64,000 nt of DNA from Spirochaetia bacterium (GTDB lineage: Bacteria; Spirochaetota; Spirochaetia; CADAEX01). The first letter of the stretch is position 1. Each line of letters starts with the position of its first letter. The notes under the pieces are model-generated. The model ran no database searches and was not told the DNA's origin. It was given only the letters and a program-made list of their open reading frames with translations. Shown here piece after piece: positions 1,282 through 63,459 of this stretch. A program made the position numbers and the translations under genes. The stretch lies in the NCBI GenBank assembly GCA_963662795.1, contig OY759746.1, positions 1,856,001 through 1,920,000 of the forward strand. Direction: 5' to 3'.

Positions 1282-1554
1282 GTCCGGCCTTGGCTTCCAG
1301 CCGTGCGGCCTGGACAAGAAGTGGGGGCACTGGTGGATAACAGAGGATAATGCGCTTCGCTCGGAGTACCTCGCTTGGGCTTCGCCACACATCGTAGGGT
1401 TTGAACAATAACTGTTAAAACAACCAGTTTTGGAAAACATATAATACAGCTTTTAAAATATCATAGTTAATCTACGATGCGTCGCTTATCCTCAGGACGT
1501 TATCCACAATGCCCCCACAAGATGCGATCGCCCGGACCTCCGGCCGACGGGCGA
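1282..1554 (+). repeat. Composite attC-like site 1
   Basis: Left hairpin + arm ending GGATAAC(1341), core, GTTATCC(1499) + arm + right hairpin TCGCCC..GGGCGA. Confidence 0.85.
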
Positions 1555-1623
1555 GGATATGCAATATGGATAATCTACTTTATAAAGTATTCTACGGTAA
1601 TTACAAATGTATGGAGTTAACTT

Positions 1624-2841
1624 ATGAAAATAGATAATGTAAATGTAGTTAAGCTAGTTAAATATATAATTACACATTCAAGAATAAGTGAGTCTGGTAT
1701 TGAATATTCAATGGACAAAGTAGATTATGCCCTTGATGAACTTTGTTTGTATTTTCCTAAATATTCTTATAATTCCATACAAAAAACTCTATTAACAATA
1801 TCAAGCAGTAAGGAAAACATTACATATGAAATGTTTGAAGATTTATTAAGAGATAATGAGGATAAAAAAACAATAAAAAGTGAATTGTATCCATACATAT
1901 TTATTATCCCAATTGGAATTACTATTGAAGAAAATACAAGTATTAAACTTTTTAAGAAAAAATTAGACTTTATTACATTTAATGATATTCAAAAAATTGT
2001 GCCAAATGAAATACTGAAGATAGAAACAATAAAAAAATCAATTCATCGAAATGAAAATATTTATATTCCAAAGACCTTTATTAAAATAAATGTTTCCGCT
2101 TTATCTCGTTCTTCAGCAGTGCTTGAATTATGGAATATTTATCAAATAATCAAAGCATTAATTGAATTACGAAAAAGTTGGGGCACGCAATACATAATTC
2201 ATAACACTCTTGATGCTCGTGGCAAGATAAATATGCCAGATTGGATAATAATAAAAGATAAAAAAAAATTTAGCATTCATCATTTTAAACTATCTATTCA
2301 GCGGCCAAAGCAAGCAATTAAATTGTCACCAGAGGATTTTAATTCAATAAAAAATATGATAAATCTCATAAAGAAAAAATCAAATGAAAAGTTATTAGAT
2401 TTTGTTATTTATAGATCTTTTTTGCTTTATAATGATGCACTTGAACAAAATGATTTCAATTATTGCTTTTTAGCTTTTTGGCAAATACTTGAAACAATTT
2501 CATTAGCAGAGAGAAATGGAGGCGATACAAAAGTAATTGTTAATCGAATTATTCCATTAACTGAAAAAATATTAGGTGACAAAATACAACTAACTCAAAT
2601 CTTAAATTTATTCGCAAAAAAAAGATGTGATTTAGTACATAGTGGAATAGGTAGTATAAGTAATGATAATATCAATAAAATAAAATATATATGTGAAATA
2701 GCTTTAGAATGGATTATTGATAATAAGGAACAATATAGAACTGTTAATACTCTTTTTCAATATTATTCTCTTCGTTCAACGGATAAAACAACAATTGACT
2801 CAATAAAATCAGCAATTAAAATATTAAAAAGAAATACGTAG
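1624..2841 (+). CDS. ApeA-like HEPN domain protein
   Basis: C-terminal FLAFWQILE...KRCDLVHSG (Rx4H). Confidence 0.55.
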   Translation: MKIDNVNVVKLVKYIITHSRISESGIEYSMDKVDYALDELCLYFPKYSYNSIQKTLLTISSSKENITYEMFEDLLRDNEDKKTIKSELYPYIFIIPIGITIEENTSIKLFKKKLDFITFNDIQKIVPNEILKIETIKKSIHRNENIYIPKTFIKINVSALSRSSAVLELWNIYQIIKALIELRKSWGTQYIIHNTLDARGKINMPDWIIIKDKKKFSIHHFKLSIQRPKQAIKLSPEDFNSIKNMINLIKKKSNEKLLDFVIYRSFLLYNDALEQNDFNYCFLAFWQILETISLAERNGGDTKVIVNRIIPLTEKILGDKIQLTQILNLFAKKRCDLVHSGIGSISNDNINKIKYICEIALEWIIDNKEQYRTVNTLFQYYSLRSTDKTTIDSIKSAIKILKRNT

Positions 2842-2902
2842 TAAAATGTGTATAAATATAATATATGTCTACAGGTATAGTTATTACTTGAAACTATAAG
2901 AA

Positions 2903-3174
2903 GTCCGGCCTTGGCTTCCAGCCGTGCGGCCTAGACAAGAAGTGGGGGCACTGGTGGATAACAGAGGATAATGCGCTTCGCTCTCTTTGGTCGCTTGGGC
3001 TTCGCCACACATCGTATGGTTTTAATTACAACATCTATAAACGACAAGTTTTAGAAGAAAATATTTTGACTTTGAAATATTAATTCTCGGACTCCGATGC
3101 GTCGCTTATCCTCGGGACGTTATCCACAATGCCCCCACAAGAGAAAATCGCCCGGACCTCCGGCCGACGGGCGA
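2903..3174 (+). repeat. Composite attC-like site 2
   Basis: AAC ends 2962; GTT at 3119; same flanking hairpins. Confidence 0.85.
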
Positions 3175-3361
3175 GAGAAAAAACAAAGAATGATTTTAAA
3201 AAATATTTGTGTAAATAAAAAAAAAGAATATAATATTAATAATGGATAAAATCAGTCTCCAATAATCTAGTTATTATTGGTTATGTTAATGTTCAAGAAT
3301 GAAGATTAAAACATAATATTCTGCTATATTAAAAAATAGATATAATGGATGATGTATTGAT

Positions 3362-4237
3362 ATGATTTTTATTAATAATAAACCTTTATTACCGTTTGAG
3401 TATAAAAGTTGTGATCTAAATACTAAAATTAAAAAATATGATGAATATTCAAAAGAAGGCTTTTTAGTAAAAAAATATAAAAAAACAGGATTTAATGAAT
3501 ATAATCAAAAAGGGTTTTTAATTAAATCCGAATACATTAACGATTTTGGTCAAAAAGTTTATCGGTCATTTACATATGACTATGATAAAGATATTATAAA
3601 CGCCATTGAAAATATTGAAATATATAATACTGCAAATGTAACAAAAAGATATAATATTATTCTATTTGAAAACATTATTAAAAAAATAGTGATTGAGGAA
3701 ATATACACTGAAAAATATATGTCTAGAAATTATTATGATGAAAAAGAATATGAATATAATAAAAAAAATATTCTCATTAAAGAAACACAAAAAAACAATT
3801 TTGATAAAATTACTATCAATTACAAATACAATAATGACAAATTAATTGAAAAAATAACATCTAGTGAAAAAGAAGTATACAATTATTCTAATAATACAAT
3901 ATCTGTTGTTGTTTATGATAACCTAAATAATATTGTCAAAAACGTTTATTATAAAATAGAATCAGATAACATAACGTATATGCTTTCTTCTAATTCAGAT
4001 AATTCAAAAAATGAAGAACAAAATGCTTATTTTTATAATGACATAATTAAAAATAAAACAATTACAAAATATTACAAATTTAATGATTGTTATTCGCATA
4101 ATAAAATAAATACAGTTGAAAACTATGATTATGATTTAAAAGGAAATTGGATTAACTATGAATGTGAGTATTTTGATAAATATAAAAATAATAAACCTTA
4201 TAAAGTAGCCATAATAAAAAGAGACATTATTTATTGA
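3362..4237 (+). CDS. Hypothetical YD-repeat-like protein
   Basis: Repeated YxY(D/N)xxG motifs, e.g. YDYDLKGNWI. Confidence 0.45.
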   Translation: MIFINNKPLLPFEYKSCDLNTKIKKYDEYSKEGFLVKKYKKTGFNEYNQKGFLIKSEYINDFGQKVYRSFTYDYDKDIINAIENIEIYNTANVTKRYNIILFENIIKKIVIEEIYTEKYMSRNYYDEKEYEYNKKNILIKETQKNNFDKITINYKYNNDKLIEKITSSEKEVYNYSNNTISVVVYDNLNNIVKNVYYKIESDNITYMLSSNSDNSKNEEQNAYFYNDIIKNKTITKYYKFNDCYSHNKINTVENYDYDLKGNWINYECEYFDKYKNNKPYKVAIIKRDIIY

Positions 4238-4279
4238 TATTTTTTACTCAGTTAGAATAATTACCTGACAGTAGAAAAA

Positions 4280-4553: not shown

Positions 4554-4606
4554 GGATATGCAATACTTAATGTAGTTAGAAAGAAATATAATGTATAGGA
4601 TGTTTT

Positions 4607-5843: not shown

Positions 5844-6114
5844 GTCCAGACCTTGCCTCCGGCCTATCGGTCTGGACAAGAAAGGGCGGTACTTCCGAGA
5901 ACAGAGGATAATGCGCTGCGCTCGGAGTACCTCGCTTGGCCTGCGGCATATTTTGCTATCATTAAAACAGTTCATATTCTGTTTTACTCTATTTAAATAT
6001 ATTCCCCAAGACTATTACAAAATAAAAGATTTTAACAAAACATCGCTTATCCTCAGGACGTTCTACGAAATACCGCCCAAGAAGACATCGCCCGGACCTT
6101 CGGCCGACGGGCGA
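5844..6114 (+). repeat. Composite attC-like site 4
   Basis: AAC ends 5902; GTT at 6060. Confidence 0.85.
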
Positions 6115-6191
6115 GAGAAAATTAATATTAACCCCAAAAGAATATAGACAATAATTTTTATGTGTTATATGGAAATACCAGGGGGTTAAAT

Positions 6192-7229
6192 ATGTATCAT
6201 CCAAGATTTAAAGGAAACCATTATGAAATGGGAAAGAAGATGGGAAAGATCTTTAAAAACGAAAATGTTCAGTTTCCTATCAAACTTGATTCATTACAAA
6301 CTGAGTATGGCAGAGAAAGCGGAAAACTGCTAAAAAAGTATTTTCCAGAAGCAGCAGAAGAAATAAAAGGCATTACTGATGTAATAGGATATGATAATGA
6401 GCAATTCACTTCCTGGCTGATGTGTATGGGTTGTTGCATGTATAATTTAGAAGAATCAAATAGTGTAGAAGTAAGAGGTTGTACTGCGTTTAGTTTTACC
6501 CATAATGGAGGGATATTTTACGGAAGAGATAATGATTTGCCACCATTTTTAAAGAAGCCAAGTAAAAGCGTATATTATAAACCAGAGAATAAGAATAGCT
6601 TTATTCTAAACACATCATCTTTTATAAATGGTGAGGAAGGAATAAATGATTATGGATTGATTGTAGCCATGACTTTTGTTTTACCAAAAATGGAAGAAAT
6701 AAAGCCGGGTTTAAATTCTGTATTTCTTGTCCGTTATATTTTAGAAAAATGCAGGACAGTTGAAGAAGGAATTGAAGTTTTAAAAAAACTACCAATAGCT
6801 TCGAGCTGTAATATTCTTTTAGCTGATAAAAGCAAAGCAATGGTTGTAGTAGAATGCAATCCATTGGAAATGAACATAAGATATCCTGAAGAAAAAGATA
6901 ATGGTGAGAGTTTTATAGTTACAGTAAATCATTTTACTTCAGAGAAAATGTGGAAACACGATGCGAGCGATCGTAATATATACTTCTCCGAAGTCAGATA
7001 TCAAACCGCACATTATGCATTAAAGAATATAGATTTCAAAGATAGTGTCGAGCATGCTGAGAAAATACTAAGCGGAGATTATGGTTTTATGTGTCAGTAT
7101 GAAAAAAAATTGAATTTTGAGACTATATGGTCATCAGTATTCGATGTTAAAAATAAAAAGATATATAGAGCAGAAGGAAATCCTATAAAAACAAAATATA
7201 TCAAAGATGAGAGACTCATTTTTATATAA
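6192..7229 (+). CDS. C45 family Ntn-hydrolase (acyltransferase/peptidase)
   Basis: GCTAFSF nucleophile site, GRDND, EGINDYGL, VNHF; ATG 6192 chosen over upstream alternative start. Confidence 0.8.
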   Translation: MYHPRFKGNHYEMGKKMGKIFKNENVQFPIKLDSLQTEYGRESGKLLKKYFPEAAEEIKGITDVIGYDNEQFTSWLMCMGCCMYNLEESNSVEVRGCTAFSFTHNGGIFYGRDNDLPPFLKKPSKSVYYKPENKNSFILNTSSFINGEEGINDYGLIVAMTFVLPKMEEIKPGLNSVFLVRYILEKCRTVEEGIEVLKKLPIASSCNILLADKSKAMVVVECNPLEMNIRYPEEKDNGESFIVTVNHFTSEKMWKHDASDRNIYFSEVRYQTAHYALKNIDFKDSVEHAEKILSGDYGFMCQYEKKLNFETIWSSVFDVKNKKIYRAEGNPIKTKYIKDERLIFI

Positions 7230-7273
7230 ACCAAAAGTAATAAATGCATTTACTTTTCAATTAGAAAAGGATA

Positions 7274-7457
7274 GTCCAGACCTTGGCTCCGCCCTATCGG
7301 TCTGGACGGGAAGGGCGGTACTTCGTAGAACACAGCATAACCGGTTCCGGCCATTCGGCCTTCACCAAAATTGCTTCGCAACTTCGGTTATGCTGGGAAC
7401 GTTATGCTCAATACCAGCCGCAAGAGGAAATCGCCCGGACCTCCGGCCAACGGGCGA
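7274..7457 (+). repeat. Composite attC-like site 5 (short 83-bp core)
   Basis: GTAGAAC 7325-7331 ... GTTATGC 7401-7407; inner stem CAGCATAACCG/CGGTTATGCTG. Confidence 0.85.
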
Positions 7458-12668: not shown

Positions 12669-14066
12669 GTGATAATTATGTATGGCAAAGTTCTGTTTTA
12701 TAATTCTATCAAAGGTATAGGTAGAATATTGGGAGAGGATTCTGAATTGTATTTTGTTCATTATTCAAAAATTGTTGGAAGAGATTACAAGATTCTTTAT
12801 AAAGGAGAACGGGTATCATTTGAGGTTAAATATCTCCCGCCTAATGAAAATGATGGAGAAAAGCATCATATGGCGATAAATATTAATGTTATAGAAGAAA
12901 AAAATGATACTAAATATTTAAGATTGAATCCTTTTACACCTGATAGACCTGTGAATAGTCCAGACCGCTTTGCTGGTAGAAGAAAAATCATTATTGACAC
13001 TGTTACCGCTCTGCAAAATAATGAAAACATATTGATTACTGGTGATAGAGGAATTGGAAAAAGTTCATTAGCGAATCAATTGTATCTTTTAAGTACAGGT
13101 AATAAATGCTTATTAGAAAGGTACGATATTAAGATAGAAAATAATTTAGATTATGCCCCAATCTCAATAAGATTGTTAAAAGATTATGATATAGCTACAA
13201 TGTCAAAAAAAATTATTCATGAGTATATTCAAAAATATGAATTATTTAAAATAAAAACCGAACATGAGTTTGATTTTAAAATATATAAATTAAAAGTAAA
13301 ACATGAAGATGAAGAAAAAGATATTACGGATTTATTTAATTACGATATTATTAAAATTGCGGAAGCATTAAAAAAGAAAAATGGTTTATTGATTTTTATT
13401 GATGAGATTGAAAATATTGACCCAGAAGCTGGTTTATCTAATTTTATAAAAAATGTAACAGAATATTTCAATATTGAAAGAAAAAAAATTAACTTTATAA
13501 TGTCGGGTATTAATTCAGCATCAACAAAACATTTTTTAGTTCATAGATCGTTTAATAGGTTATTTACTTCAATACAATTAAAAGAATTATCTATGATTGA
13601 GGCCGATGAATTTTTAACTTTATATTTAGAAAATAATTCTACACATATTATGGATTCCACTAGATCAAAATTAATAAAAGCATCTCGAGGACTACCTGTT
13701 AATCTACAATTATTAGGGTTTTATTCATATCAATTGGATGATGATAATAGAATATCAAAAAATGATTTAGATGATGCAATAGAACACATATTAGAAGTCA
13801 AAAAAAATGAATATGCTAATCGACATGAAAGTATTGGTTTTGGTCTTCCTGAAGAAATATTAAAATATATTTATAAAGAAAAAAAATTCAATGAAATAAA
13901 GATTGATTTTCTTTTAGAAAAGTTTCAAACCGATGAAATAAAAGTTATAGAATCATTAAATAAATTAGAAAAGTGTGAACTTATAACAAAGTATGCTAAA
14001 GGTAGGTATTTTATAAAAGATTATTTATTCCATTTATATTTACAAAAACATTATTATACATTTTAA
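12669..14066 (+). CDS. Cold-shock domain fused to AAA+/STAND-like ATPase with probable C-terminal winged helix
   Basis: GKVLFYNSIKGIGRI..YFVHYSKI..GERVSFEV (CSD); NPF..FAGR, Walker A GDRGIGKS, Walker B IFIDEIE. Confidence 0.75.
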   Translation: MIIMYGKVLFYNSIKGIGRILGEDSELYFVHYSKIVGRDYKILYKGERVSFEVKYLPPNENDGEKHHMAININVIEEKNDTKYLRLNPFTPDRPVNSPDRFAGRRKIIIDTVTALQNNENILITGDRGIGKSSLANQLYLLSTGNKCLLERYDIKIENNLDYAPISIRLLKDYDIATMSKKIIHEYIQKYELFKIKTEHEFDFKIYKLKVKHEDEEKDITDLFNYDIIKIAEALKKKNGLLIFIDEIENIDPEAGLSNFIKNVTEYFNIERKKINFIMSGINSASTKHFLVHRSFNRLFTSIQLKELSMIEADEFLTLYLENNSTHIMDSTRSKLIKASRGLPVNLQLLGFYSYQLDDDNRISKNDLDDAIEHILEVKKNEYANRHESIGFGLPEEILKYIYKEKKFNEIKIDFLLEKFQTDEIKVIESLNKLEKCELITKYAKGRYFIKDYLFHLYLQKHYYTF

Positions 14067-15180: not shown

Positions 15181-15673
15181 TATAATTGTTAAAAAAATAT
15201 TTCCGCCGCTTGATGATTTATACATGCTTTTGAAAAAAATGCAAAAAGTATTGAATGTGGAAATCAATGAAGAAGATTTTGTTATAGGTAAAAAGCAATT
15301 ATTTTATATTTTTATGCATGAGACAATGCATGCCTTTATCTCTAAAAAAGCACATTGGATATATGATCTTGCTGAATATGAAACAGATTTTATTGATGAA
15401 GTAGTCGCAAGAATAATAATTGATGATTTGATAAAAGAATTAAATATCTACGAAAAGTTGGATTTATTTTATGAAAACCATATTAATCACAGAAAAGATC
15501 TTCCAAAATATGGTTACAATTTAACCCCAGAACAGTATGACGGAATCGAAAGAGAATATTATAGAAATCATTCGAAAGAAAAAGATATTAATGGCTTCTG
15601 TCATTTTGTTCATGATGAGTATAAAAGACTTGGTATTAAACGGAGAGAAGATTTTTCATATAAACAGAATTAA
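15167..15673 (+). CDS. Hypothetical protein with HExxH zincin-like motif
   Basis: FMHETMHAF followed by DEVVAR; overlaps TPR gene. Confidence 0.45.
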   Translation: MSKDDIIVKKIFPPLDDLYMLLKKMQKVLNVEINEEDFVIGKKQLFYIFMHETMHAFISKKAHWIYDLAEYETDFIDEVVARIIIDDLIKELNIYEKLDLFYENHINHRKDLPKYGYNLTPEQYDGIEREYYRNHSKEKDINGFCHFVHDEYKRLGIKRREDFSYKQN

Positions 15674-25691: not shown

Positions 25692-26575
25692 TTATGAGGC
25701 AAGTGGTAATTCTAATTGTTTCATGACGCTTATTTTGGGAATATCAACTTCGATTGAATCAATTGGACTTTTAATATTCAAAAGATCAAACCTTTGTGCA
25801 TGCAAGTATATCATTGTAGAGTTTATTGAAGAGTGCCCTAAGAGTCGCATAATATAAAATATATTTACATTATGCTCTAATAGATGTGTTGCAAAACTAT
25901 GCCTTAATGTGTGAACATGTGCAGATTTATTTATATTTGTTTTACTAAAATATTTCTGAAAAACCTCCTGAACACGCCTTATTTTCATAGGTATAGCTTT
26001 ATTTCGAAGATTAAAAAATAAATAATTAATAGGAACATAATTCTTTATATATTCTTTTAATAATTTAATTGTATTGTCACCAATTATCGCATATCTTTCT
26101 TTTCTATTTTTTGATTCTGACACAAAAATAAGTTTTCTGTTAAAATCTATATCAGATATTTTAATGTTTAAGCCTTCTGATATACGAAGCCCTGAAGAAT
26201 ATAGTAATGTGAACAAAGTTTTATATCTAAAATCATAACAGTTGTCTAAAAACAGTTTTACTTCTTCTTTTGTCAGAATAGTTGGAACTTTAAAACTTTT
26301 TTTGGTCTTGGGATGGAAATAATATATTCTCTCATATTGTGAAGAGAAAAGAAAAATAAAAGAGCATGATAATAACAATGAATTATGGAGGGACTATTAC
26401 CTGAATCATATAAATAAAAGAAAAATCGTCTTAATTCCTGTTTTGTTATATCTGTGGGTTTTTTATTGAAAAATAAAGCAAGTTTATTAACATAAAAGAC
26501 ATATTGATTTATAGTTCTTTGGCTATATCCTTGTAAAGTCATTTCTTCAATCATGTGTTCACGTAAATATCCCAT
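25692..26575 (-). pseudogene. Tyrosine recombinase/integrase (SAM-like N-terminus + catalytic domain), split by one frameshift
   Basis: ORFs 26273-26575 and 25692-26378 join at an A7 run (26297-26303); catalytic R (SGLRISE), K, HxxR (HTLRH), H (LLGH), Y (TMIY) intact; ~294 aa if restored. Confidence 0.8.
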
Positions 26576-30721: not shown

Positions 30722-30988
30722 GTCCGGCCTTGGCGTTGCCGTGCGGCCTGGACAAGAAGGGGACGTACTGCTGCTAACAGAGGATAATTCGCTACGCTCG
30801 GAGTACCTCGCTTGGCCTACGGCACACATCGTAGGTTTGATCTGCAATTTTTAAAAACAATAAGTTTTGGATAAAAAATATTGTAACTTTGAAATACTAG
30901 TTCTTTGGCTACGATGCGTCGCTTATCCTCAAGACGTTAGCAGCAATGCCCCCGCCAGGAGGAGAGCTGCGTGCCGTCCTGGCACGCA
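30722..30988 (+). repeat. Composite attC-like site 19
   Basis: AAC ends 30778; GTT at 30936; right hairpin TGCGTGCCGTCCTGGCACGCA. Confidence 0.85.
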
Positions 30989-31047
30989 AAGAAAAAAATA
31001 AGTGTTTGATATCTATTGAAAGTGTGAACATGTAAAAATCTTACTTT

Positions 31048-31420: not shown

Positions 31421-31441
31421 AGTAGAAATCCCTGAATAAGA

Positions 31442-42157: not shown

Positions 42158-42413
42158 TCAAGCTCAACTTCCATGTTTCGCTTGAGGAAGCGCGTTTACT
42201 GCAAATAACAGAGGATAATTCGCTTCGCTCGGAGTACCTCGCTTGGCCTGCGGCATATTTTGCTATCATTAAAGCAGTTCATATTCTGTTTTACGCTGTT
42301 TAAATATATTTCCCAATATTATTACGTTGAAAAAGGATTTAGCAAAACATCGCTTATCCTCAAGACGTTAGATGCAATGTTCGGCTTGTAAAGCCTCGCC
42401 GTCCTGGCGAGGC
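42158..42413 (+). repeat. Composite attC-like site 25
   Basis: AAC ends 42209; GTT at 42367; right hairpin GCCTCGCCGTCCTGGCGAGGC. Confidence 0.85.
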
Positions 42414-42426
42414 AAGAGGAGGAAAT

Positions 42427-44223
42427 ATGAGATTACATTCACTAATTATAAAAGGGTTAAGGAGAATATCAAATATTAAGATAAGATTTGGAGACGCCAC
42501 TTTTTTAATTGGACCGAATAATTCTGGTAAAAGTACAATATTATTAGCAATAGAGTATTTATTACAAGCAAGTAAAAGGTTAGATGATAAAGAGTATTTT
42601 TCTATAATTGATGAAGAAACAGGAGAACAAAAAACAGCCACAAATACTATTATTTTAGAAGCTGAATTTCGTAATCTACCTCATGAATCTAAAGAATGGA
42701 GAGGGTTTAAAGGACGCCTTTTTAATTATGACCCAGAAGATACTAGTGAATCAGGAATTTCAATACAATATAGAAAGACTTATGAATTAGGTAATGATGT
42801 TGTGATTGAATTAAAAACTAAAAAAAGAATATTAAATGAAAAGTTTAAAAATTGTAAAAAGCCCCAAGATTACATTAATTTAGGTATAGATACTAAAAAA
42901 GTAAATGAATTGTTTTCTGATCTTGATAAAAATATAACAGTAAAAGAGCAAAAATTATTAGATGAATTAGATGATATTTGGGAGCTTGGAGAGGAAGATG
43001 AATGGTTTAAAAATCCTGGGGGGATTCCAGGTAATGTTTTAAGCCGTTTACCAAGATTTTTATTAATTCCCGCTGATACTGCAGCAAATAATTTAGAAGG
43101 ATCTGGAACAGGTGTTTTAAGTAAAATGTTGACAGAATTATTTGAGGATGTAAGAACAAAATCAGTTAATTATGAAAAAGCACAACATTTCTTGAATGAA
43201 TTAGCAAAAGAATTAGATCCAAACGATAATAATTCTGAATTTGGAAAAATGATTCTGGAATTAAATGATATATTAAAGAATATATTTCCAGAATCAAAAT
43301 TGTATGCTGATACTGATCTAAGTGATCCCGATAAAGTTTTAAAACCAACTTTTAGCGTTGAAATGTCAAGTAATGTAAGAACGACAGTTAATCGACAAGG
43401 AACAGGTATGATTAGATCTGCGGCTTTTGGTATTCTGCGCTATAGGCAAAAATGGATATCAAAAAGAAATTGTGATGAGTATAGATCCTTGATAGTTGCA
43501 TTTGAAGAGCCTGAATTATATCTTCACCCAAGTGCGGCAAATCAAATGAGAAATACAATTTATACTTTAAGTGGGTGCGATTCTCAAATAGTGGCAACAA
43601 CTCATTCTCCATATATGATAGATCTTTCAAGAAAGCCAAGACAAATACTCAATAGATTATTTTTTAAAAATGGTAATATAGAATGTATTCCATTTAATGT
43701 AAGTCGCGCATTTAAAATCTTACATGAAAATGATAAAACTTATGTTAAATTACTTTTAAAAATAGATGATTATCTTTCAAGAGTTTTTTTTACTAATAAA
43801 GTTGTTGTTGTTGAAGGAGATACAGAAGATATAGTAATTAGAGAAGCATTATCACGTCTCCCAGAAGATATTAGGACATCGATTTATGTTAATTATGAAG
43901 TAGTTAAAGCAAGAGGTAAAGCAACAATAATTGGATTGATTAAATACCTAAATGCTTTAGATATCCATCCTATAATTATTCATGATAGAGACAAAGGTGT
44001 TGAAGGTGCTGAAAAATATAATAAGGTAATATCAGAATTAATTAATGAAAAAAGCAAAATATTTGTTTTAGAAGAGTGTATAGAAGATATTCTTGGATAT
44101 AGTGCTCCATCAACAGAAAAACCTTATACTGCGTTTGAGTATTTAATTAAAAGAGGTAATGAATGGGAAAAATTACCTGAAAAATTAAAAGAATTATTAA
44201 AAAATGTATTTAATGAAATATGA
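42427..44223 (+). CDS. OLD family ATP-dependent nuclease (ABC ATPase + TOPRIM)
   Basis: GPNNSGKS, FEEPELYLHP, TTHSP, VVEGDTE, HDRD. Confidence 0.85.
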   Translation: MRLHSLIIKGLRRISNIKIRFGDATFLIGPNNSGKSTILLAIEYLLQASKRLDDKEYFSIIDEETGEQKTATNTIILEAEFRNLPHESKEWRGFKGRLFNYDPEDTSESGISIQYRKTYELGNDVVIELKTKKRILNEKFKNCKKPQDYINLGIDTKKVNELFSDLDKNITVKEQKLLDELDDIWELGEEDEWFKNPGGIPGNVLSRLPRFLLIPADTAANNLEGSGTGVLSKMLTELFEDVRTKSVNYEKAQHFLNELAKELDPNDNNSEFGKMILELNDILKNIFPESKLYADTDLSDPDKVLKPTFSVEMSSNVRTTVNRQGTGMIRSAAFGILRYRQKWISKRNCDEYRSLIVAFEEPELYLHPSAANQMRNTIYTLSGCDSQIVATTHSPYMIDLSRKPRQILNRLFFKNGNIECIPFNVSRAFKILHENDKTYVKLLLKIDDYLSRVFFTNKVVVVEGDTEDIVIREALSRLPEDIRTSIYVNYEVVKARGKATIIGLIKYLNALDIHPIIIHDRDKGVEGAEKYNKVISELINEKSKIFVLEECIEDILGYSAPSTEKPYTAFEYLIKRGNEWEKLPEKLKELLKNVFNEI

Positions 44224-44225
44224 AA

Positions 44226-44512
44226 TCGTAAAAGTACATCCTTGTACTTTTACGAAAGCCGAACACAGCATCTAACAGCGATTATTTCGCTGCGCTCCCT
44301 ATGGTCGCTTGGGCTCCTGCCAGTCGAACTGGCAGATCGCCATATTTTGTTTTCATAAAACTGAAACAACATGTATTTTATGCTTTTCAAGATTTAAAAA
44401 AAACTAAATAAAAGTATTTTATAGTTTAGCCACAAAACATCGAATAATCGCGGGACGTTATCCACAATGCCCCCACAAGATGCGATCGCCCGGACCTCCG
44501 GCCGACGGGCGA
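44226..44512 (+). repeat. Composite attC-like site 26
   Basis: Left hairpin TCGTAAAAGTACATCCTTGTACTTTTACGA; AAC ends 44276; GTT at 44457. Confidence 0.85.
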
Positions 44513-46718: not shown

Positions 46719-46988
46719 GTCCGGCCTTGGCGGTGCCGTGCGGCCTGGACAAGACGCCCAGCCACAGCCGATAACAGAGGATAATGCGCTTCGCTCCCTT
46801 TGGTCGCTTGGGCTTCGCCACACATCGTAGGTTTTGAATTACAACTTCTATAAAAAACAAGTTTTTGAAGCAAAATATTATAACTTCGAAATAATAATTC
46901 TTAGGCTCCGATGCGTCGCTTATCCTCAGGACGTTATACGTAATGGCCAGGCAAGAGAAAACCGCCCGGACCTCCGGCCGACGGGCGA
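46719..46988 (+). repeat. Composite attC-like site 28
   Basis: AAC ends 46775; GTT at 46933. Confidence 0.85.
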
Positions 46989-47009
46989 GGATATGCAAAC
47001 TATTATTAA

Positions 47010-47525
47010 ATGAGGCTAAATATGCATGAATTATTATTAGAAATCATGATGGTTGAATATCAGAGAGAAATAGAGCGAAAAGCAAAACTTGAAGCTAAAG
47101 CTTTATCTTATGTAACGATTATTTCAATAATAATTTCTACTTCTCTAGTGTTAATGCTTTATTTTACATCTACATCTACATCTACATATACTGGTAAAAT
47201 AGTAAAAGTTTTATATTTTATAATGTTTTTGGGTGTTTTGGATTATTCAGTTTTTACAATAATATTTTCCTTAATCTCTATGAAAATGAGTAAAATGAAT
47301 ATTTTGGATATCAATGAAATAGAATTACTATGGAATAAAGATAAAGCTGATATTGAAGGGTCCGTTTTTAAAACAATAAAAAAAATAATTAAAGAAAATA
47401 GTGATTTTAATAAAAGAATAGAAAATAATAATGAGCTGTCATATATTTATTTATGGATAACAATGGTTTTTTATTTATTACAAATTGGATTTTCATTGCT
47501 TATAATTTTTGGAGGAATTAAATGA
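47010..47525 (+). CDS. Membrane protein (2 TM + loop + 1 TM)
   Basis: LEAKA then two hydrophobic helices, a soluble loop and a C-terminal hydrophobic helix. Confidence 0.6.
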   Translation: MRLNMHELLLEIMMVEYQREIERKAKLEAKALSYVTIISIIISTSLVLMLYFTSTSTSTYTGKIVKVLYFIMFLGVLDYSVFTIIFSLISMKMSKMNILDINEIELLWNKDKADIEGSVFKTIKKIIKENSDFNKRIENNNELSYIYLWITMVFYLLQIGFSLLIIFGGIK

Positions 47526-47677
47526 AAGATGTAAAAGAAAGTGTTTCTCAAGAAAAAGAAAAGAAACTGACAGAAGAAGAAAAGAAAACTGAAATACCTG
47601 GAAAAATTATGAAGACAGAATTTGTAAATTACAGTGAAAAAAATGATGACAATAATCATGACAATAATGAAATGTAA
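47522..47677 (+). CDS. Small charged peptide (51 aa)
   Basis: Manual translation MKDVKESVSQEKEKK...NDDNNHDNNEM; GGAGG RBS; ATGA overlap with upstream stop. Confidence 0.45.
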   Translation: MKDVKESVSQEKEKKLTEEEKKTEIPGKIMKTEFVNYSEKNDDNNHDNNEM

Positions 47678-47842
47678 ATAATAATTGTTCTTGCATTTTG
47701 AATTAAAAAAGAATAGAAAGCGTTTAAAATATGAGCATTCAATATTTAATACCGCAAGATAGAATCATATTTTTAAAAATAATATGATGTATAAAACAAT
47801 TAAATTGCAGATATCATTAATAGATTATTATGTACCTGATAT

Positions 47843-49117
47843 CATAGGTGTCCAAAACAAGGACTATTAATTGCCTGAAATCCCAACTATAATGAATTAA
47901 GCTTGGACGGCTAATTCTTTACAGGAAAAGGAAATCAGGCAATGAGTTACAATAATACCATTTTAAAACAAATTCTACAAATAATTCCGAGACATGAATT
48001 TGAAAAATCTGTAAAAAAACATAAAGGGGACTTTGCTTCCAAAGGTTTTACCTGTTGGCAGCATTTTGTCTCCATGCTCTTTGCACAACTTTCAGGACAG
48101 ACCGGGTTAAGAGGCATTGAAAACTCTTTTGAATCAATCAGTAACCACCTTTATCATATGGGTGTAAAAAAGGTAAAACGCTCTACATTATCTTACGCAA
48201 ATAATAATAGAAGCTGTGAAGTTTATGAAAATGTTTTCACTGATCTTCTTGATAAGATATTATCCATGAAGAGAGCGCATAAACATAAATTTAAAAATCC
48301 TCTTTACAGTGTTGATGCATCAACTATTGACTTGTGTTTAAATCTCTTTCCATGGGCAAATTTCAGAAAATATAAAGGCGGAATAAAACTTAATGTAAAA
48401 CTTGACCATAGTGGATATATTCCAGCTTTTGTATCAGTTACAACTGCAAAAACACATGAAGTCAATTCCTTGAAAAAAATGGCTTTCAACAAAGGCGATG
48501 TCATCACGTTTGATCGTGGTTATACTGACTTTAAATTATTCGCAAATTATTGTAATACCGGTATTTATTTTGTTACCAGGTTAAAAAAGAATGCTGATTA
48601 TAAAATTGTCCAGAGAAAAGATACCTCCTCCTTTAAAAATATTACATCTGATCAGATCATAGAAATGAAAGGATTTTACACCAGTAAAAAATGCCCGTTA
48701 AAATTAAGACGAATCAGAAGCAGAGATCCTGAAACCGGTAAATATATTGTAATTCTTACCAATAATTTCCTTTGGTCTCCAACAACAATTGCTGCTGTTT
48801 ACAAAGACAGATGGCAGATTGAAATATTTTTTAAAACTATCAAACAGAACCTCAAGATCAAGAAATTCTTTGGTACTTCCAGAAATGCTGTAATGACACA
48901 AATCTGGATTGCCCTAATTGCTTTTCTGTTACTTCAGTTCCTTAAAATGTTTTCATGTAGAAAATGGACTCATTTTTCACTGATGAAATTGATTCCTGTA
49001 ATACTGACATCAAGAAAAGATATCTGGACTGTTCTCAATAAACCGCCTTCAGAACAGACTAAAAAAACTAGTTTCAATCTTCAACTGGAGCTGTTATGAT
49101 TGTTTTGGACACCTATG
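47843..49117 (+). mobile_element. IS4-family insertion sequence, complete
   Basis: 18-bp TIR CATAGGTGTCCAAAACAA / TTGTTTTGGACACCTATG; 9-bp target duplication ACCTGATAT (47834-47842, 49118-49126). Confidence 0.9.
47942..49099 (+). CDS. IS4 family DDE transposase
   Basis: VDASTI, FDRGY, YKDRWQIEIFFKTIKQ (YREK-type motif). Confidence 0.9.
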   Translation: MSYNNTILKQILQIIPRHEFEKSVKKHKGDFASKGFTCWQHFVSMLFAQLSGQTGLRGIENSFESISNHLYHMGVKKVKRSTLSYANNNRSCEVYENVFTDLLDKILSMKRAHKHKFKNPLYSVDASTIDLCLNLFPWANFRKYKGGIKLNVKLDHSGYIPAFVSVTTAKTHEVNSLKKMAFNKGDVITFDRGYTDFKLFANYCNTGIYFVTRLKKNADYKIVQRKDTSSFKNITSDQIIEMKGFYTSKKCPLKLRRIRSRDPETGKYIVILTNNFLWSPTTIAAVYKDRWQIEIFFKTIKQNLKIKKFFGTSRNAVMTQIWIALIAFLLLQFLKMFSCRKWTHFSLMKLIPVILTSRKDIWTVLNKPPSEQTKKTSFNLQLELL

Positions 49118-49152
49118 ACCTGATATAATAATTAAATCTAAGTTAATAAAAA

Positions 49153-49442
49153 GTCCAGCCTTGGCTCCGCCGTGCGGCCTGGACAAGAAGCCTGGCCACT
49201 ACGTATAACAGCGATTATTTCGCTGCGCTCCTGATGGTCGCTTGGGCTCCTGCCAGTTGAGCTGGCAGATCGCCATATTTTGTTTTCTTAAAACCGGAAC
49301 AACATGTGTTTTTACTTTTCAAGATTGATAAAACCAAATAAAAATATTTTAGAGTTTCGCCACAAAACATCGAATAATCGCGGGACGTTATACGTAATGG
49401 CCAGGCAAGAGAAAATCGCCCGGACCTCCGGCCGACGGGCGA
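49153..49442 (+). repeat. Composite attC-like site 29
   Basis: AAC ends 49209; GTT at 49387. Confidence 0.85.
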
Positions 49443-53245: not shown

Positions 53246-56221
53246 ATGAAAAAAGAAGAAGGCAAAAAATTAATCGCTGAAAGAGTTGAAGATTTTGAGA
53301 AAAATAAGGCGATTTTAACAAAAAAAGGCCACGGAGAGACAAATATTCGCTCAAATTTCATAGATATTATGTATAAAGCCTTAGGGTGGGACATGAAAAG
53401 CCATTATGAAGTAGTTAGAGAGTATTCTCAAAGAGATAAATCTTCTTCTGGCGGGACAAAAAAAGTAGATTATGCCTTTAAAATAAATGGAAAACTTAAA
53501 TTTTTTATAGAAGCAAAAGAAGCAAGTGTAGATTTAGAAAAAGATAAAAATGCTATTTACCAGGCAAAAAGATATGCCTATTCTTCAAATGGAAAAGCAC
53601 CAATAGTAATTTTAACAGATTTTGAAGAATTCAGAGTTTTTAATGTTTTAAAAGCTCCAATAATTGATAATCCAGATAGAGATTTATTGCAAAGCCACTG
53701 TATGAGATATACAGATTATCTAGAAAAATGGGATTTGCTCTGGGATACATTTTCAAGAGAAGCTGTTGAGAAAGGAAGTTTAGATAAGTTAAGAGGAAAA
53801 ATTGATAAAAATACCAGAACAATGGATGTTGAATTCCTTGCACAGATTACAGAGTGGCGGGAGATTTTAGCAAAAAATATTGCAGTTAGAAATGAAAATC
53901 TTGAAGTTGACGAAATAAATGAAGCAGTTCAAAGAATCCTTGACAGGCTTGTTTTTATTAGAAACCTTGAAGACAGGGAAATTGAACCAGAAAATATGCT
54001 TTTTGAAAAAGCACATAAATCAGACAATGTTTATAAATCACTTATTCCTTTATTTAACTCATTAGATAAAACCTATAACGGACTACTTTTCAAAAAACAT
54101 TTTTCTGAAGAGATTGAAGTCGATGATAAGGCAATAAAAGATATAATTCGCCAAATGTGTTACCCTGTTTCTCCATTCCAGTTTGATGTTATTGAACCAG
54201 AAATACTTGGGAGAATATATGAAAAGTTTCTTGGAAGTAAAATCAGGTTGACAGATTCACACAGAGTAAAAATAGAAGAAAAAATAGAAGTAAGAAAAGC
54301 TGGTGGTGTTTATTATACACCTGAATACATAGTTGAATACATTGTAAAAAATACTGTAGGTAAAAAAATTGAAGGACTTAACCCGGAAGAAATTAAAGAA
54401 ATTAAAATTGTTGATCCTGCCTGTGGTTCTGGTAGTTTCCTACTTGGAGCTTATTCATATTTACTTGATTATCATCAGAAATGGTACTTGGCAAACCAGA
54501 AAGATAAAACATATCAAGCAAATTGGTATAAAACAAAAGATGGGGAAATAAAAGTAAAGCTCGATAAACGAGCTGATATACTTAGAAATAATATTTTTGG
54601 AGTAGATATTGATAAAGAAGCAACTGAAGTTGCAATAATGAGCCTTTATCTTAAAATGCTTGATGATGGTTTTGATAAAGGTCAACGAGATTTATTTTTC
54701 TTGAAGGGTTCTATACTTCCAGATATGAAAGAAAATATAAAATGTGGAAATAGTTTAATAGGTACAGATCTTTTTGATGATAGATTTGATTTTGACAGTA
54801 ATGATTTTAAAATAATAAAACCATTTGATTGGAATGTTCAGTTTTTTGAAATATTTTCAAATGGAGGGTTTGATTGCATAATTGGCAATCCCCCCTATGT
54901 TGATGTTAAAATATTACCGGACTCAATAAAAAAAATATTGATTGATAAATATAAATCTGCTTCTAATCGCTTTGACTTATATATTCCATTTATTGAAAGA
55001 TCCTTTTCATTAATTAATCAAAATGGAATAATTTCTTTTATTATGCCAACAATGTTTTTAATACGCGATTATGGTATTGGTATAAGAAACGTTATAAAAA
55101 ACAAATCTTATATTAAAGAAATTATACATTTTGGTACAAATCAAATATTTGAAAATGCGATGAATTACGTTGGTATTTTTTCTTTTATTAAAAATGAATT
55201 AGAAAATACGAATATTATAAAATATATAGATTGTAATTTTTCTCCTGATGAAATAGCCAAAGTATTAAACGGAGAACATGTCTTTGATAAAAAATATCTA
55301 AAGTATACAAATAATAAAGAAAACTATAATAATAAGGAATGGCATTTATTAAGTAAGCCTGAAGAAAAAATATTTTGCACTTTCAATAAATATAAACCAT
55401 TAGTGGAATATTTAGAATTTGCAAGTGAGGGCATTCATAGTGGAAAAGATGAAGTGTTTTTTATTAATGATAATAGTTTGTTCAGTGAAGGTATTGTATA
55501 TAAACTTGCAAAAGGTAAAGATGTTCATCGATATGAAAATGTCGATGTTAAAGAATTTAAACAGTATGTTATTTATCCTTATGATTTAAATACTGGTGAA
55601 GTAATATCTGAAAATGAATTGAAAAATAATTATAGACTCGTTTATGAATATTTAAAAAATTCTAGAGAAAAACTCAAGGGTAGGCCGTACTTTGATAGAT
55701 CATCAAAAAAATGGTATGAATTGTGGTGTCCAAGAAATCCATCATTATATATAAAGCCAAAAATAATTGGCCCAGAAATTACAAATTGTGGTAATTTTAC
55801 ACTTAGTTTAACACCTCTTTTTATAAATAATAAATTAAAATCATTAGTATTAAAGAATAATGTTAATGAAAAAATTGAATATATACTTGGATTATTAAAT
55901 TCAAAACTATTAGTATATTTACATAAATTGATTGCACCTCCCAAAGGGAATAATTATTTTGAAGTTAAAACTACGATATTAAGTAAATTGCCTATTAAAT
56001 CAATAGATTTTAAAGATTCAAATGAAAAAGAAAAACATGATAATATTGTTCTTTTAGTTAATCAGATGATTAATGTAAAAAAAGAACTATCTCTATCTAA
56101 AAGTGAAGCAGACAAATCAATCAACAACCAAAAAATAGCAATAATAGATAATAAAATTGATGAGCTTGTTTATGAACTTTATGAAATTTCTGATGAAGAA
56201 ATAAAATTTATTGACTCCTGA
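53246..56221 (+). CDS. Type IIG fused restriction-modification enzyme (Eco57I-like)
   Basis: N-terminal VDYAF..IEAK nuclease; GVYYTP, DPACGSGSFL, IGNPPY; C-terminal TRD and IDELVYELY. Confidence 0.9.
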   Translation: MKKEEGKKLIAERVEDFEKNKAILTKKGHGETNIRSNFIDIMYKALGWDMKSHYEVVREYSQRDKSSSGGTKKVDYAFKINGKLKFFIEAKEASVDLEKDKNAIYQAKRYAYSSNGKAPIVILTDFEEFRVFNVLKAPIIDNPDRDLLQSHCMRYTDYLEKWDLLWDTFSREAVEKGSLDKLRGKIDKNTRTMDVEFLAQITEWREILAKNIAVRNENLEVDEINEAVQRILDRLVFIRNLEDREIEPENMLFEKAHKSDNVYKSLIPLFNSLDKTYNGLLFKKHFSEEIEVDDKAIKDIIRQMCYPVSPFQFDVIEPEILGRIYEKFLGSKIRLTDSHRVKIEEKIEVRKAGGVYYTPEYIVEYIVKNTVGKKIEGLNPEEIKEIKIVDPACGSGSFLLGAYSYLLDYHQKWYLANQKDKTYQANWYKTKDGEIKVKLDKRADILRNNIFGVDIDKEATEVAIMSLYLKMLDDGFDKGQRDLFFLKGSILPDMKENIKCGNSLIGTDLFDDRFDFDSNDFKIIKPFDWNVQFFEIFSNGGFDCIIGNPPYVDVKILPDSIKKILIDKYKSASNRFDLYIPFIERSFSLINQNGIISFIMPTMFLIRDYGIGIRNVIKNKSYIKEIIHFGTNQIFENAMNYVGIFSFIKNELENTNIIKYIDCNFSPDEIAKVLNGEHVFDKKYLKYTNNKENYNNKEWHLLSKPEEKIFCTFNKYKPLVEYLEFASEGIHSGKDEVFFINDNSLFSEGIVYKLAKGKDVHRYENVDVKEFKQYVIYPYDLNTGEVISENELKNNYRLVYEYLKNSREKLKGRPYFDRSSKKWYELWCPRNPSLYIKPKIIGPEITNCGNFTLSLTPLFINNKLKSLVLKNNVNEKIEYILGLLNSKLLVYLHKLIAPPKGNNYFEVKTTILSKLPIKSIDFKDSNEKEKHDNIVLLVNQMINVKKELSLSKSEADKSINNQKIAIIDNKIDELVYELYEISDEEIKFIDS

Positions 56222-61244: not shown

Positions 61245-61266
61245 ATAAAAGTCTATAAAATAATTA

Positions 61267-61559
61267 GTTAAGCCCTTGGCTCCGCCGTGCGGCCTTAACA
61301 ATAGGCGTGGATACTGGTGCATAACAGCGATTATTTCGCTGCGCTCCCTGTGGTCGCTTGGGCTCCTGCCAGTTGAGCTGGCAGATCGCCATATTTTGTA
61401 TTCATAAAACCGGAACAACATGTGTTTTGTGCTCTTCAAGTTTGTAAAAACCAAATAAAAGTATTTTAGAGTTTAGTCACAAAACATCGAATAATCGCGA
61501 GACGTTAGCAGCAATACGTCCCCAAGAGAACACCGCCCGGACCTCCGGCCCACGGGCGA
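61267..61559 (+). repeat. Composite attC-like site 35
   Basis: AAC ends 61325; GTT at 61504; left hairpin base covaries (GTTAAG/CTTAAC). Confidence 0.85.
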
Positions 61560-61572
61560 AGAAAATAGTAAC

Positions 61573-61634
61573 TGCTGTATAATATACTTTAAAAATAGAT
61601 ATAAATAGTTTTCTAGTTATTTAATATGTTAGGA
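61573..61634 (+). promoter_or_regulatory. Cassette-internal TATAAT box plus attI-like site (copy 4)
   Basis: CTGTATAAT..TAGTTTTCTAGTTATTTAATATG|TTAGG; crossover G61628. Confidence 0.7.
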
Positions 61635-62365
61635 TGACTCTTAGGGTCAATGAAAATTATAAAATGAAAGACATAATAGAAATAACGAATAGTTTTAATA
61701 ACACTTTTACTGAATATGGCTGGATAGCAACAGATGATTTCTCTGTTTCAATTATGGAAAAGGCTTTAGAAACATATCGTAATAAAGGAATTGCTTCAGC
61801 CGAAGACTACTTTTGTTCAGTATTTAATGATCAATATTTTAGTACTTGTATACACCGAATGAAAGCAATATTGATTTTTAAGGGTAGAGAACGTCTGGTA
61901 GAATTTGCATATATTGATCATAAAGAAAAAAGATTTCATGCATCAATTCCTGTTGTACTAAGTCAAATTGATGGACTTGTTCATGATATTGCAAAACAAA
62001 GTTTCTATGAAAGATATGAGAGAACAAAAATATTTCAATATACAAGTAAGATTACAGGTTTAGTCTCGACCTTAGATAAAGTAGCTCAAAATATGAATCA
62101 ATGTAGAAAGCAAACAAATTTTACACCATTAAACTTTCCGTATCGAAATGGAATATTACACGGACGTGATATCAATTACGATTCAGAAATAGTATCTACA
62201 AAATGTTTTTTTAATTTATTTGCTCTTAGAACCTGGGGATTGTTTATACAAAATAATGAGTTCGATAAAATATTAAATCCAAAACAATATATTAAAATAC
62301 CTGGTTTCGTAGTTGGGGATAAAATGAAACTTTATATGGAAGAGGCATTTAAAGAAAAAGTTTAA
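61634..62365 (+). CDS. HEPN-like hypothetical protein
   Basis: SQIDG and RNGILHG (Rx4H). Confidence 0.5.
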   Translation: MTLRVNENYKMKDIIEITNSFNNTFTEYGWIATDDFSVSIMEKALETYRNKGIASAEDYFCSVFNDQYFSTCIHRMKAILIFKGRERLVEFAYIDHKEKRFHASIPVVLSQIDGLVHDIAKQSFYERYERTKIFQYTSKITGLVSTLDKVAQNMNQCRKQTNFTPLNFPYRNGILHGRDINYDSEIVSTKCFFNLFALRTWGLFIQNNEFDKILNPKQYIKIPGFVVGDKMKLYMEEAFKEKV

Positions 62366-62478
62366 CAACTGCTTAATTTTGATATTTTCTTTGTCGCATT
62401 TAGTGCAGTCGCTGCGCATACGCATAAAATGTAACAAGTTTTAAAAGTACTAAAATACAGGTTAAGTAAATGTTAGAA
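62360..62478 (+). repeat. Treponema-type attC nested in wrapper
   Basis: TTTAAC (overlaps stop)..GCTTAA ... GGTTAAGTAAATG|TTAGAA; related to 45201-45319. Confidence 0.7.
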
Positions 62479-62504
62479 AGACGTTCCGTACAGGAAGGAA
62501 AGAG

Positions 62505-63104
62505 ATGGATCAAGTATTAATAATTATTTCTATAATAGGTGCAATAGTTACAGTAATTACATTCTCAGAAAAAATTACTAAAATTAAAAGTTTTCTGGTT
62601 AATTCATTTTCAAAAAAGAAAAATATTGAAATAAAAATAGTAAATAAAATGATTGAATACTATAATTTCTTTACCGAAAATATGGACAAAGAAAACTGTG
62701 AATTAAAATATTCAAAAATGGAAGATGAAATAGATTTTATTTTAAAAAATATTAAATACAAAATGGTTTTAAAATTTGATAACAAATTTATTGATAAATA
62801 TATGAAATATATAGGTTATAAAAAAGAATTTAGAACAACAGAAAATTTTTATAAATACAGTCATCTATATTTCAAAAATACAGACCTAATATTGGAATTA
62901 TCAAAAAGTACTTATAAAATTAAAATTGATAGATTAAATTTTCCATTAAAAGATATTTGGGGACAATTTCGAGCTAATCGTTTTATATTTTGTTCTCAAT
63001 ATAAAAAAAGGTGGGAAGGCGTACCTGAAATTGATAAAATATTTTTACAAGATATTGAAATGCCTATAAAATTATTAAAGATATACTATAATATAATTAT
63101 ATAA
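62505..63104 (+). CDS. Hypothetical protein with N-terminal TM helix
   Basis: ORF track; hydrophobic N-terminus. Confidence 0.55.
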   Translation: MDQVLIIISIIGAIVTVITFSEKITKIKSFLVNSFSKKKNIEIKIVNKMIEYYNFFTENMDKENCELKYSKMEDEIDFILKNIKYKMVLKFDNKFIDKYMKYIGYKKEFRTTENFYKYSHLYFKNTDLILELSKSTYKIKIDRLNFPLKDIWGQFRANRFIFCSQYKKRWEGVPEIDKIFLQDIEMPIKLLKIYYNIII

Positions 63105-63108
63105 GAAT

Positions 63109-63167
63109 TTTTAACAAATTGTTCAACTTGATTAGTCATTGCTTCATGAGTTAATAAAATGTTATAA
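63109..63167 (+). repeat. Short (59 bp) canonical-type attC nested in wrapper
   Basis: TTTTAAC..TCAACTTGA..TCATGAGTTAA..AATG|TTATAA. Confidence 0.55.
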
Positions 63168-63186
63168 AATTAAAATAGGGAAAGAA

Positions 63187-63459
63187 GTCCAGCCTTGGCT
63201 CCGCCGGGCGGCTTGGACAAGAAGCGGCTGGTACTGGAGCATAACAGCGGGTAAGAAACTGCGCTCGGAGTACCTCGCTTGGGCTTCGCCATATTTTGCT
63301 TTTAAACAACAAAAATAATTATTGTAATGTTCTTTTCAAGTTTTAAAAAAAGGACAAATGAGTATTATAGTTTTAACCGCAAAACATCTTTTACCCGCGG
63401 GACGTTCTCCGAAATACCGCCCCAAGATGCGATCGCCCGGACCTCCGGCCCACGGGCGA
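63187..63459 (+). repeat. Composite attC-like site 36
   Basis: AAC ends 63245; GTT at 63404. Confidence 0.85.

Follow-up and report, generated by a model that had tools for sequence, protein, structure and literature searches.

Paired end tags of an integron-like cassette array headed by a Xer-type recombinase, and the extended stem that they probably form

In classical integrons the complementarity between the R'' and R' arms of a recombination site (attC) is limited to a 7-bp core, and the integrase is marked by the IntI-specific insertion near patch III, which is about 35 residues long. Recombination in integrons is considered to require this IntI-specific domain (PMC4792948), and the choice of strand at attC sites has been related to unpaired features and to a bottom-strand G:T bias (Nivina et al. 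2016, PMC5027507). Recombinases without the domain were few near attC sites in the census of Cury et al. (2016, PMC4889954), where they had fewer than three sites beside them and were rejected as IntI. The rAID-1 clusters of Bacteroidales have a 5' recombinase of the XerD family, followed by co-directional genes of low G+C content with repetitive intergenic sequences 'reminiscent of integrons' (Ross et al. 2019, 10.1101/471110); their defining recombinase is XerD-like and more than 44% identical to the reference of B. fragilis, and their cargo consists of immunity genes. Our statements on these papers, and on the one cited below for array orientation, cover the portions of them that deal with the points named. 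In this study we analyse 64,000 nucleotides from a Spirochaetia bacterium (GenBank assembly GCA_963662795.1, contig OY759746.1), below called the window, which corresponds to genome positions 1,856,001-1,920,000 and lies within a 331-kb array of cassettes at genome 1,848,848-2,180,724. Nearly all cassette units of this array start with a tag opening in GTT and end with its near reverse complement closing in AAC. Our leading explanation, to which we give a probability of roughly 0.6, is that the two tags together make up an R-arm stem extended to about 20-21 bp, and that the integron-like array is run by a Xer-type recombinase lacking the IntI insertion.

Compared by description, the rAID-1 clusters are the closest published relative of this array. 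Here, too, a tyrosine recombinase gene stands 5' of at least two co-directional, low-G+C units with repetitive intergenic sequences. The portion of the rAID-1 paper used here differs in giving motif logos and no hairpin anatomy, crossover or paired cassette ends (10.1101/471110), and the cargo of the present array consists of restriction-modification and other defence-type genes. With classical integrons (class 1 and the sedentary chromosomal integrons of Vibrio) the array shares the co-oriented series of mostly promoterless cassettes, the imperfect-palindrome sites with outer AAC...GTT boxes, inner L arms, an asymmetric unpaired spacer and a variable loop, the crossover at G↓TT with the first bases of a cassette complementing its own R'', the defence-type cargo and, as a computed result in our case, a better-folding bottom strand with a G.T bias. 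It differs from them in a recombinase without the IntI insertion, in an own-end stem of about 20 bp with a fixed wobble at position 11, in sites of about 150-195 nt whose inner hairpin is not inherited together with R'', and in a right-hand break of homology at AAC^ in half of the recent duplicates; moreover, the recombinase gene is co-oriented with the cassettes in the source genome (G000) and in two related genomes, G011 and G020. As for Xer/dif, the best family scores of the recombinase are Xer-type and the first junctions downstream of the gene resemble short double-stranded cores, whereas folded hairpin sites bound the cassettes here in an array of 193 sites and Xer acts on one 28-bp chromosomal site. 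In the literature, leaving aside the supplementary figures of PMC4889954 and of 10.1101/471110 (S4), we found no description of a split 20-bp stem or of arrays of such design.

Layout of the array and its paired end tags

The sites were located by nhmmer with two hidden Markov models (HMMs) built from junctions, one for R'' (..AAC) and one for R' (GTT..), the tags being unused in the search. Overall, each model gave 195 matches on the + strand, and their strict alternation led to pairing into 193 attC-like hairpin sites enclosing 192 units, with every site on this one strand. The array covers 8% of the genome, and beyond it a genome-wide scan with the junction models shows a few solitary site copies. 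The distance from AAC to GTT is 133-181 nt at 191 of the 193 sites and 69 nt at the remaining two. Read along the + strand, the left half of a junction consists of a hairpin (hp1), AAGAA and the end tag closing in AAC; the middle consists of A, the L'' arm, a long AT-rich part, the L' arm and a 5-nt spacer; the right half consists of the start tag opening with GTT, then AAGA, a second hairpin (hp2) and the gene. The AAGA that the preliminary description of this DNA had placed after the start tag is present at 178 of 193 sites. Among the spacers, GGGAC (98 sites), GAGAC (47) and AGGAC (29) are the main types, and the L arms are paired in all three main families of inner modules. The array has a G+C content of 31.4% against 39.7% for the genome, and the cumulative GC skew identifies its bottom strand as the template of the leading strand, an orientation that has been reported to restrain excision in sedentary integrons (PMC13108822). 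A scan of the window with Rfam at the gathering threshold gave no matches. The features of the window that are referred to below are these:

1-64000, + strand: array segment with 36 attC-like sites and 35 complete units, co-oriented, in strict R''/R' alternation by nhmmer
6060-6079, + strand: start tag (R' GTT plus extension) of unit 6060-7331
7312-7331, + strand: end tag (extension plus R'' ..AAC) of unit 6060-7331, the reverse complement of the start tag bar position 11
7332-7400, + strand: 69-nt inner hairpin module, one of the two short ones of the array
42367-42386, + strand: start tag of unit 42367-44276
44257-44276, + strand: end tag of unit 42367-44276
46933-46952, + strand: start tag of unit 46933-49209
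46962-46988, + strand: hp2, conserved 5' hairpin of the CGCCCGGACCTCCGGCCGACGGGCG type, cassette-internal and not part of the recombination stem
49153-49184, + strand: hp1, conserved 3' hairpin followed by AAGAA, unit-internal
49190-49209, + strand: end tag of unit 46933-49209
49210-49386, + strand: inner module of an attC-like site (A, L'', AT-rich variable part, L', GGGAC spacer)
49387-49406, + strand: start tag of the following unit, matching 49190-49209 in type, giving a natural junction with the full 21-bp stem
61504-63245, + strand: sole unit of the window with tags of two different types

The preliminary description had given three example pairs of tags, at 6060/7331, 42367/44276 and 46933/49209, and all three are found there. 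It had also counted 34 of the 35 complete window units as matching end to end, and by eye we arrive at the same count. With a strict threshold (GTT+6 arm at least 8/9 and outer nine at least 8/9), 33 of the 35 match, since 30936-31495 fails through an indel alone and 61504-63245 is a true mismatch. In the whole array, where the start is read as GTT-N6-AA-N9 and the end as its reverse complement, 178 of 192 units match at this threshold. When tags are compared without gaps over 22 positions, own ends match at 15.7 of them on average, against 11.9 for the pairs at neighbouring junctions and 11.2 for random pairs.

The covariation proposed earlier is borne out. The 104 unique end pairs match at 17.0 of 18 positions, compared with 9.9 (standard deviation, sd, 0.19) when partners are shuffled, and all four bases are seen at 13 of the 18 tag positions with the partner arm following. 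These pairs came from 12 genomes or loci. The units of the relatives were chosen by matching, whereas those of G000 were not pre-selected, so only the tag-match figure of G000 is unbiased. The pair counts are our own register-aware counts, and a MAFFT alignment of eight natural same-tag junctions misregistered the types with a 2-nt versus a 3-nt bulge. The invariant AA opposite C, which had been read as a G.T wobble on the bottom strand, holds at the position 11 pair in nearly the whole array: of 192 units, 191 have AA in the start tag, and 185 have G facing the second A once the end tag is reverse-complemented, the element then reading CAG in 79 units, AG in 71 and TG in 27. The top strand has A.C at position 11 and the bottom strand T.G, and the R'' arm often has one extra base.

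About 20 tag sequences had been estimated for the window, and 20 distinct tags are counted there; the whole array has 41 types. The tags are not cassette-specific, as they had first been called, for the 192 units, whose cargos form 140 families, have 41 types between them. As many as 33 unrelated cargos are found in the 39 units that bear the commonest tag, and related cargos keep one tag in 24 of 29 families. On the whole, the paired tags are a real, conserved feature under selection for pairing. Terminal repeats of the transposon type are ruled out as their identity by the strict alternation with hairpin modules, the single orientation and the adjoining recombinase gene.

As a separate observation, the L arms of the 69-nt module at 7332-7400, CAGCATAACCG and CGGTTATGCTG, repeat the GTTATGC R arm of the tag of the next unit, and L arms and R arm look as though a single protein could bind them.

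The recombinase and its arrays in other genomes

The gene of a tyrosine recombinase of 339 amino acids (aa) lies about 1 kb upstream of the first site and is co-oriented with the array. Its best family scores are Xer-type, none of them over the curated cut-off (214.5 bits against 220 for the XerA model, 175.4 against 335 for XerC and 173.2 against 330 for XerD). With the IntI model TIGR02249 it reaches 200 bits, the cut-off being 265, and the match is interrupted at model positions 172-230, skipping the IntI-specific region. The alignment shows that the protein and its relatives are without the insertion of about 38 residues present in the true IntI of the related genome G011. For the N-terminal region the structural model has a pLDDT of 74, Foldseek gives the SMARCAL1 HARP domain at an E-value of 0.16, and VIA gives Z scores of at most 5.4 to unrelated folds; Pfam HARP scores 18.8 and 16.7 bits in two orthologues (cut-off 25) and has no match in the G000 protein.

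The sole IntI-type gene of G000 is at genome 412,371-413,302, 1.4 Mb from the array. It is frameshifted and has internal stops, its pieces score 175.8 and 195.7 bits with TIGR02249, and transposase-like open reading frames (ORFs) lie beside it; the genome-wide scan with the junction models found no attC-like sites of the array kind near it. Two further recombinase genes are seen inside the array itself. One is an ORF of 228 aa at window 25692-26378 on the minus strand, of XerA type with 169.6 bits, which looks N-terminally short; the other is at genome 2,050,776-2,051,576, near an orphan R'' site.

Among the related genomes (G002, G005, G008, G011 and G020) the association of gene and array recurs in four. 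An Xer-type orthologue adjoins an array of the same kind in G011 and G020, where it is co-oriented with the cassettes, and in G005 and G008, where it is divergent. No conserved order of units is found between the G000 array and G002 or G011. The intact IntI genes of G011, G005 and G008 head arrays of their own, with classical sites of about 95 nt, and within the 20-kb surroundings of these genes there is no site of the present kind. The pairing of own ends in the IntI arrays of G005, G011 and G020 (12 cassettes) is 1-9 bp, both G020 cassettes having 9 bp, against about 20 bp here, which agrees with the earlier statement that the present arms are longer than the canonical 7 bp or so.

We further made a search seeded with the recombinase alone, which led to 80 loci across phyla. 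Among them, the same unit design starts right beside the gene in seven, namely in Spirochaetota, Ignavibacteriota, Flavobacteriales, Patescibacteria, two Firmicutes and one further metagenome-assembled genome (MAG), and position 11 is again A versus G. By our own estimate, chance would give about 0.03-0.06 such pairs per 20-kb strand at 17/20. The other 73 loci, not gone through singly, include many short contigs or more distant Xer paralogues. The suggestion of a distinct class of recombination site is thus supported from two sides: a Xer-type recombinase without the insertion heads the arrays, and the design recurs beside its homologues in other phyla.

Two of these loci show peculiar units. 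In a Flavobacteriales MAG (locus L072, about 13923-13962) there is an 'empty' unit of 40 nt, in which only five bases separate the start tag from the matching end tag, and which is possibly a chassis without cargo. A classical integron array ends with a full attC. In a Spirochaetota MAG (locus L059, about 15240-15262) a two-unit array stops at the AAC of its last unit with no inner hairpin beyond, and therefore, unlike a classical array, has one hairpin fewer than it has units.

Crossover, folding and the explanations weighed

The own ends of a unit match, yet only 47 of the 191 array junctions join like tags, so the crossover lies between the tags. The other 144 junctions join different tags, and a crossover outside the tags is ruled out by them. 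In near-identical copies of units, homology on the left side is lost exactly at ^GTT in all eight pairs inspected, as in integrons. Since a crossover at G↓TT splits the stem, the stem is complete only in the excised circle and at same-tag junctions; the longer stem that had been proposed for the excised circle would thus form in that circle or between same-tag neighbours. Folding of sites circularised in silico (DNA parameters) gives -42.3 kcal/mol for the bottom strand of the circle form and -38.4 for its top strand, and the bottom strand of the array form reaches -32.1, about 10 kcal/mol worse than the circle form. The bottom strand is the more stable one in 180 of 192 circle-form units. At the same-tag junction 49186-49410 it folds at -48.9 kcal/mol (z -7.1) with an unbroken outer stem of 21 bp, against -41.4 kcal/mol for the top strand, and a mixed-tag junction reaches -30 kcal/mol. 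The anatomy of the site, its covariation, its association with the recombinase family and these energetics are established directly.

The stem has three parts, running outward from the crossover: a 9-bp arm, G↓TTA(T)N4-5; an element of 2-3 nt whose final position invariably has A facing C in the top strand (T.G in the bottom strand); and a G+C-rich clamp of 8-9 bp, free in sequence, with its pairing kept. With the crossover at the inner end of the stem, the 5' end of each cassette carries the 3' half of the stem, and the 3' end carries the 5' half. From these features we infer protein binding, strand choice and effects on rate. Lacking the IntI domain, with which extrahelical bases are gripped, the enzyme would need a full-length duplex arm, and the wobble would mark out the bottom strand as the cleanly folding one. 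Array junctions with mismatched tags, folding about 10 kcal/mol worse, would favour the hoarding of cassettes over their excision.

Several points weigh against this explanation. If a full duplex arm were required, 144 of the 191 junctions would be poor substrates for the exit of a cassette. The clamp is not universal in the recombinase class, because in the two units read from the Xer-type array of G020 the 9-bp arm pairs and the outer part pairs at 3-5 of 9 positions. A true IntI may have acted on the array earlier, which is conceivable because of the frameshifted IntI gene that G000 carries. The data are assembled contigs, broken at repeats, in which circle junctions and excision joints are not visible, and the unit pairs and related genomes counted are not independent of each other. 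The likeness of the 11-nt arm TTAT-N4-AAT to the arms of dif, finally, is a presumed one.

The inner hairpin is a module of its own, assorting independently of the tags. Mutual information shows no link between the family of the inner module and either flanking tag (z 1.6 and -0.2). Inner modules at least 90% alike are found in 27.6% of the pairs with homologous upstream cargos, compared with a background of 7.2%, in 2.6% of those with homologous downstream cargos, and in 4.3% of those with the same tag and unrelated cargo. In 30 pairs of units at least 95% identical, the two members have the same inner module downstream in 13 cases and upstream in none (best 0.92), and in 15 cases they agree in neither. 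Right-side homology ends at AAC^ in eight of eight pairs inspected, including a tag type with only two copies, where the resolution of the breakpoint is about 4 nt because all inner modules begin with AG(C/A)G. The breakpoints of the inner modules thus fall at both AAC and GTT, within about 4 nt conserved at each end. The classical exchange of bottom strands at G↓TT cannot separate R'' from L''.

These observations, together with the distribution of tags along the array, bear on a possible extension of the split-stem explanation, which we put forward tentatively: the tags could work as address labels, the arms of a circle pairing in trans with the arm of a same-tag junction and so steering where the cassette lands, and a two-step exchange could swap the inner modules. 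The 47 same-tag neighbours compare with 15.2 (sd 3.5) after shuffling, and such a roughly threefold excess would follow from like-tagged arms pairing in trans. Among the 47 pairs, 46 have unrelated cargo, and the excess declines with distance (z 9.1, 3.7 and 0.8 at distances 1, 2 and 3), being gone from distance 3. In leader, trailer and inner module, same-tag units that adjoin each other show no greater similarity than those far apart, and for both reasons block inheritance is disfavoured as the source of the same-tag runs. On this sequence pattern the tags are hinted to influence where cassettes land. The independent assortment of inner modules, with breakpoints at AAC and GTT, would in turn be expected if hairpin tips were swapped, for a completed second exchange between two folded hairpins would swap the tips alone and leave the units in place. 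The support is, however, inferential throughout. Same-tag runs could also arise if cassettes were generated locally on a copied chassis, and for common tag types homologous recombination could act in the shared 60-bp region of hp1 plus tag. A duplicate of a two-unit block would test an inner-only swap directly, and there are none among the 56 homologous pairs in the array, so that such a swap is not directly visible. The fuller form of the idea, in which the tags would be functional address labels of a Xer-type system of single-stranded hairpins whose enzyme, unlike IntI, completes both strand exchanges, seems doubtful to us; if true, it would be a living picture of the transition from Xer to integron.

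The pairing of the arms might instead be a neutral relic, the cassettes having been born with a perfect palindrome, for example by snap-back copying at a hairpin, with arms that have not yet diverged. This was the other possibility raised in the preliminary description, which spoke of a trace of how cassettes are made. The near-perfect arms (17.0/18) would fit it, and so would the many cargos per tag type, as expected from a few reused founder chassis. Copying back, however, predicts a perfect complement. The asymmetric A.C/G.T pair at position 11 is kept in 185-191 of 192 units, the one-sided bulge (CAG, AG or TG opposite AA) is kept as well, and both are conserved across phyla, which disfavours a copy-back origin and leaves that suggestion without support. 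Arms of different types differ at most positions and yet remain paired, and IntI cassettes of sister genomes with the same internal hairpins lack the extension. We therefore regard a relic as very unlikely.

Least probable of all is that the array is an ordinary integron remnant (CALIN, a cluster of attC sites lacking an integrase), built by a true IntI that is now broken and with the Xer-type gene as a bystander: the frameshifted TIGR02249-type gene at 412 kb in G000, and insertion sequence (IS) elements that cut and displaced the array end, make rearrangement plausible, but the Xer-type gene adjoins such arrays in G000 and four relatives (G011, G020, G005 and G008), the same site design stands beside the gene in the seven loci from other phyla, and the intact IntI of G011, G005 and G008 head classical arrays with no site of the present type within 20 kb.

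Cargo, internal hairpins, array ends and significance

The cargo of the array includes type IIG restriction-modification proteins (Eco57I/MmeI-like), an OLD-family nuclease (AAA_15/TOPRIM), a STAND NTPase, DNA methylases and a protein with PHP and AAA_21. In the window, defence-type cargo is found at 31799-34774, 42427-44223, 53246-56221 and 12669-14066, among others.

Each unit has a 5' hairpin, hp2, whose loop contains ACCTCC, which is anti-Shine-Dalgarno-like, and a 3' hairpin, hp1, followed by AAGAA. There are 158 copies of hp2, all on the + strand and all inside the array. Both hairpins also occur inside cassettes of the true IntI array of G020, at other distances from the cassette ends, and this rules them out as part of the recombination site. 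As both loops have the same sense on the coding strand, a role at the level of RNA seems more likely, hp1 and hp2 probably being elements of the transcript that are common to both types of array.

At the start of the array, the first cassette after the recombinase gene (genome 1,848,150-1,848,789; locus L003, 2321-2746) has an end tag and no recognisable start tag. It holds a small pair of genes resembling, by eye, a putative antitoxin and a putative toxin of the PIN type. At the other end, an IS element at genome 2,180,706-2,181,500 truncates the last start tag of the array, and the same IS end borders an isolated cassette end with a complete site at genome 2,489,480-2,489,960. This suggests that an IS-mediated rearrangement displaced the terminus of the array.

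In conclusion, the array is an integron-like system, its signature site being the split stem, and is probably run by a recombinase without the IntI domain. Such a recombinase heads 193 sites here, compared with the fewer than three sites given in the census of Cury et al. (PMC4889954). Arrays of this kind will be classed as orphan clusters by detection tools that rely on IntI and on the 7-bp core. Its sites differ from attC in a testable way, with a 20-bp split stem, one fixed wobble and an exchangeable inner hairpin. The array therefore gives a handle on how folded DNA sites are recognised without the IntI domain, on the origin of integrons from Xer-type enzymes, and on the balance between the hoarding and the shuffling of cassettes.

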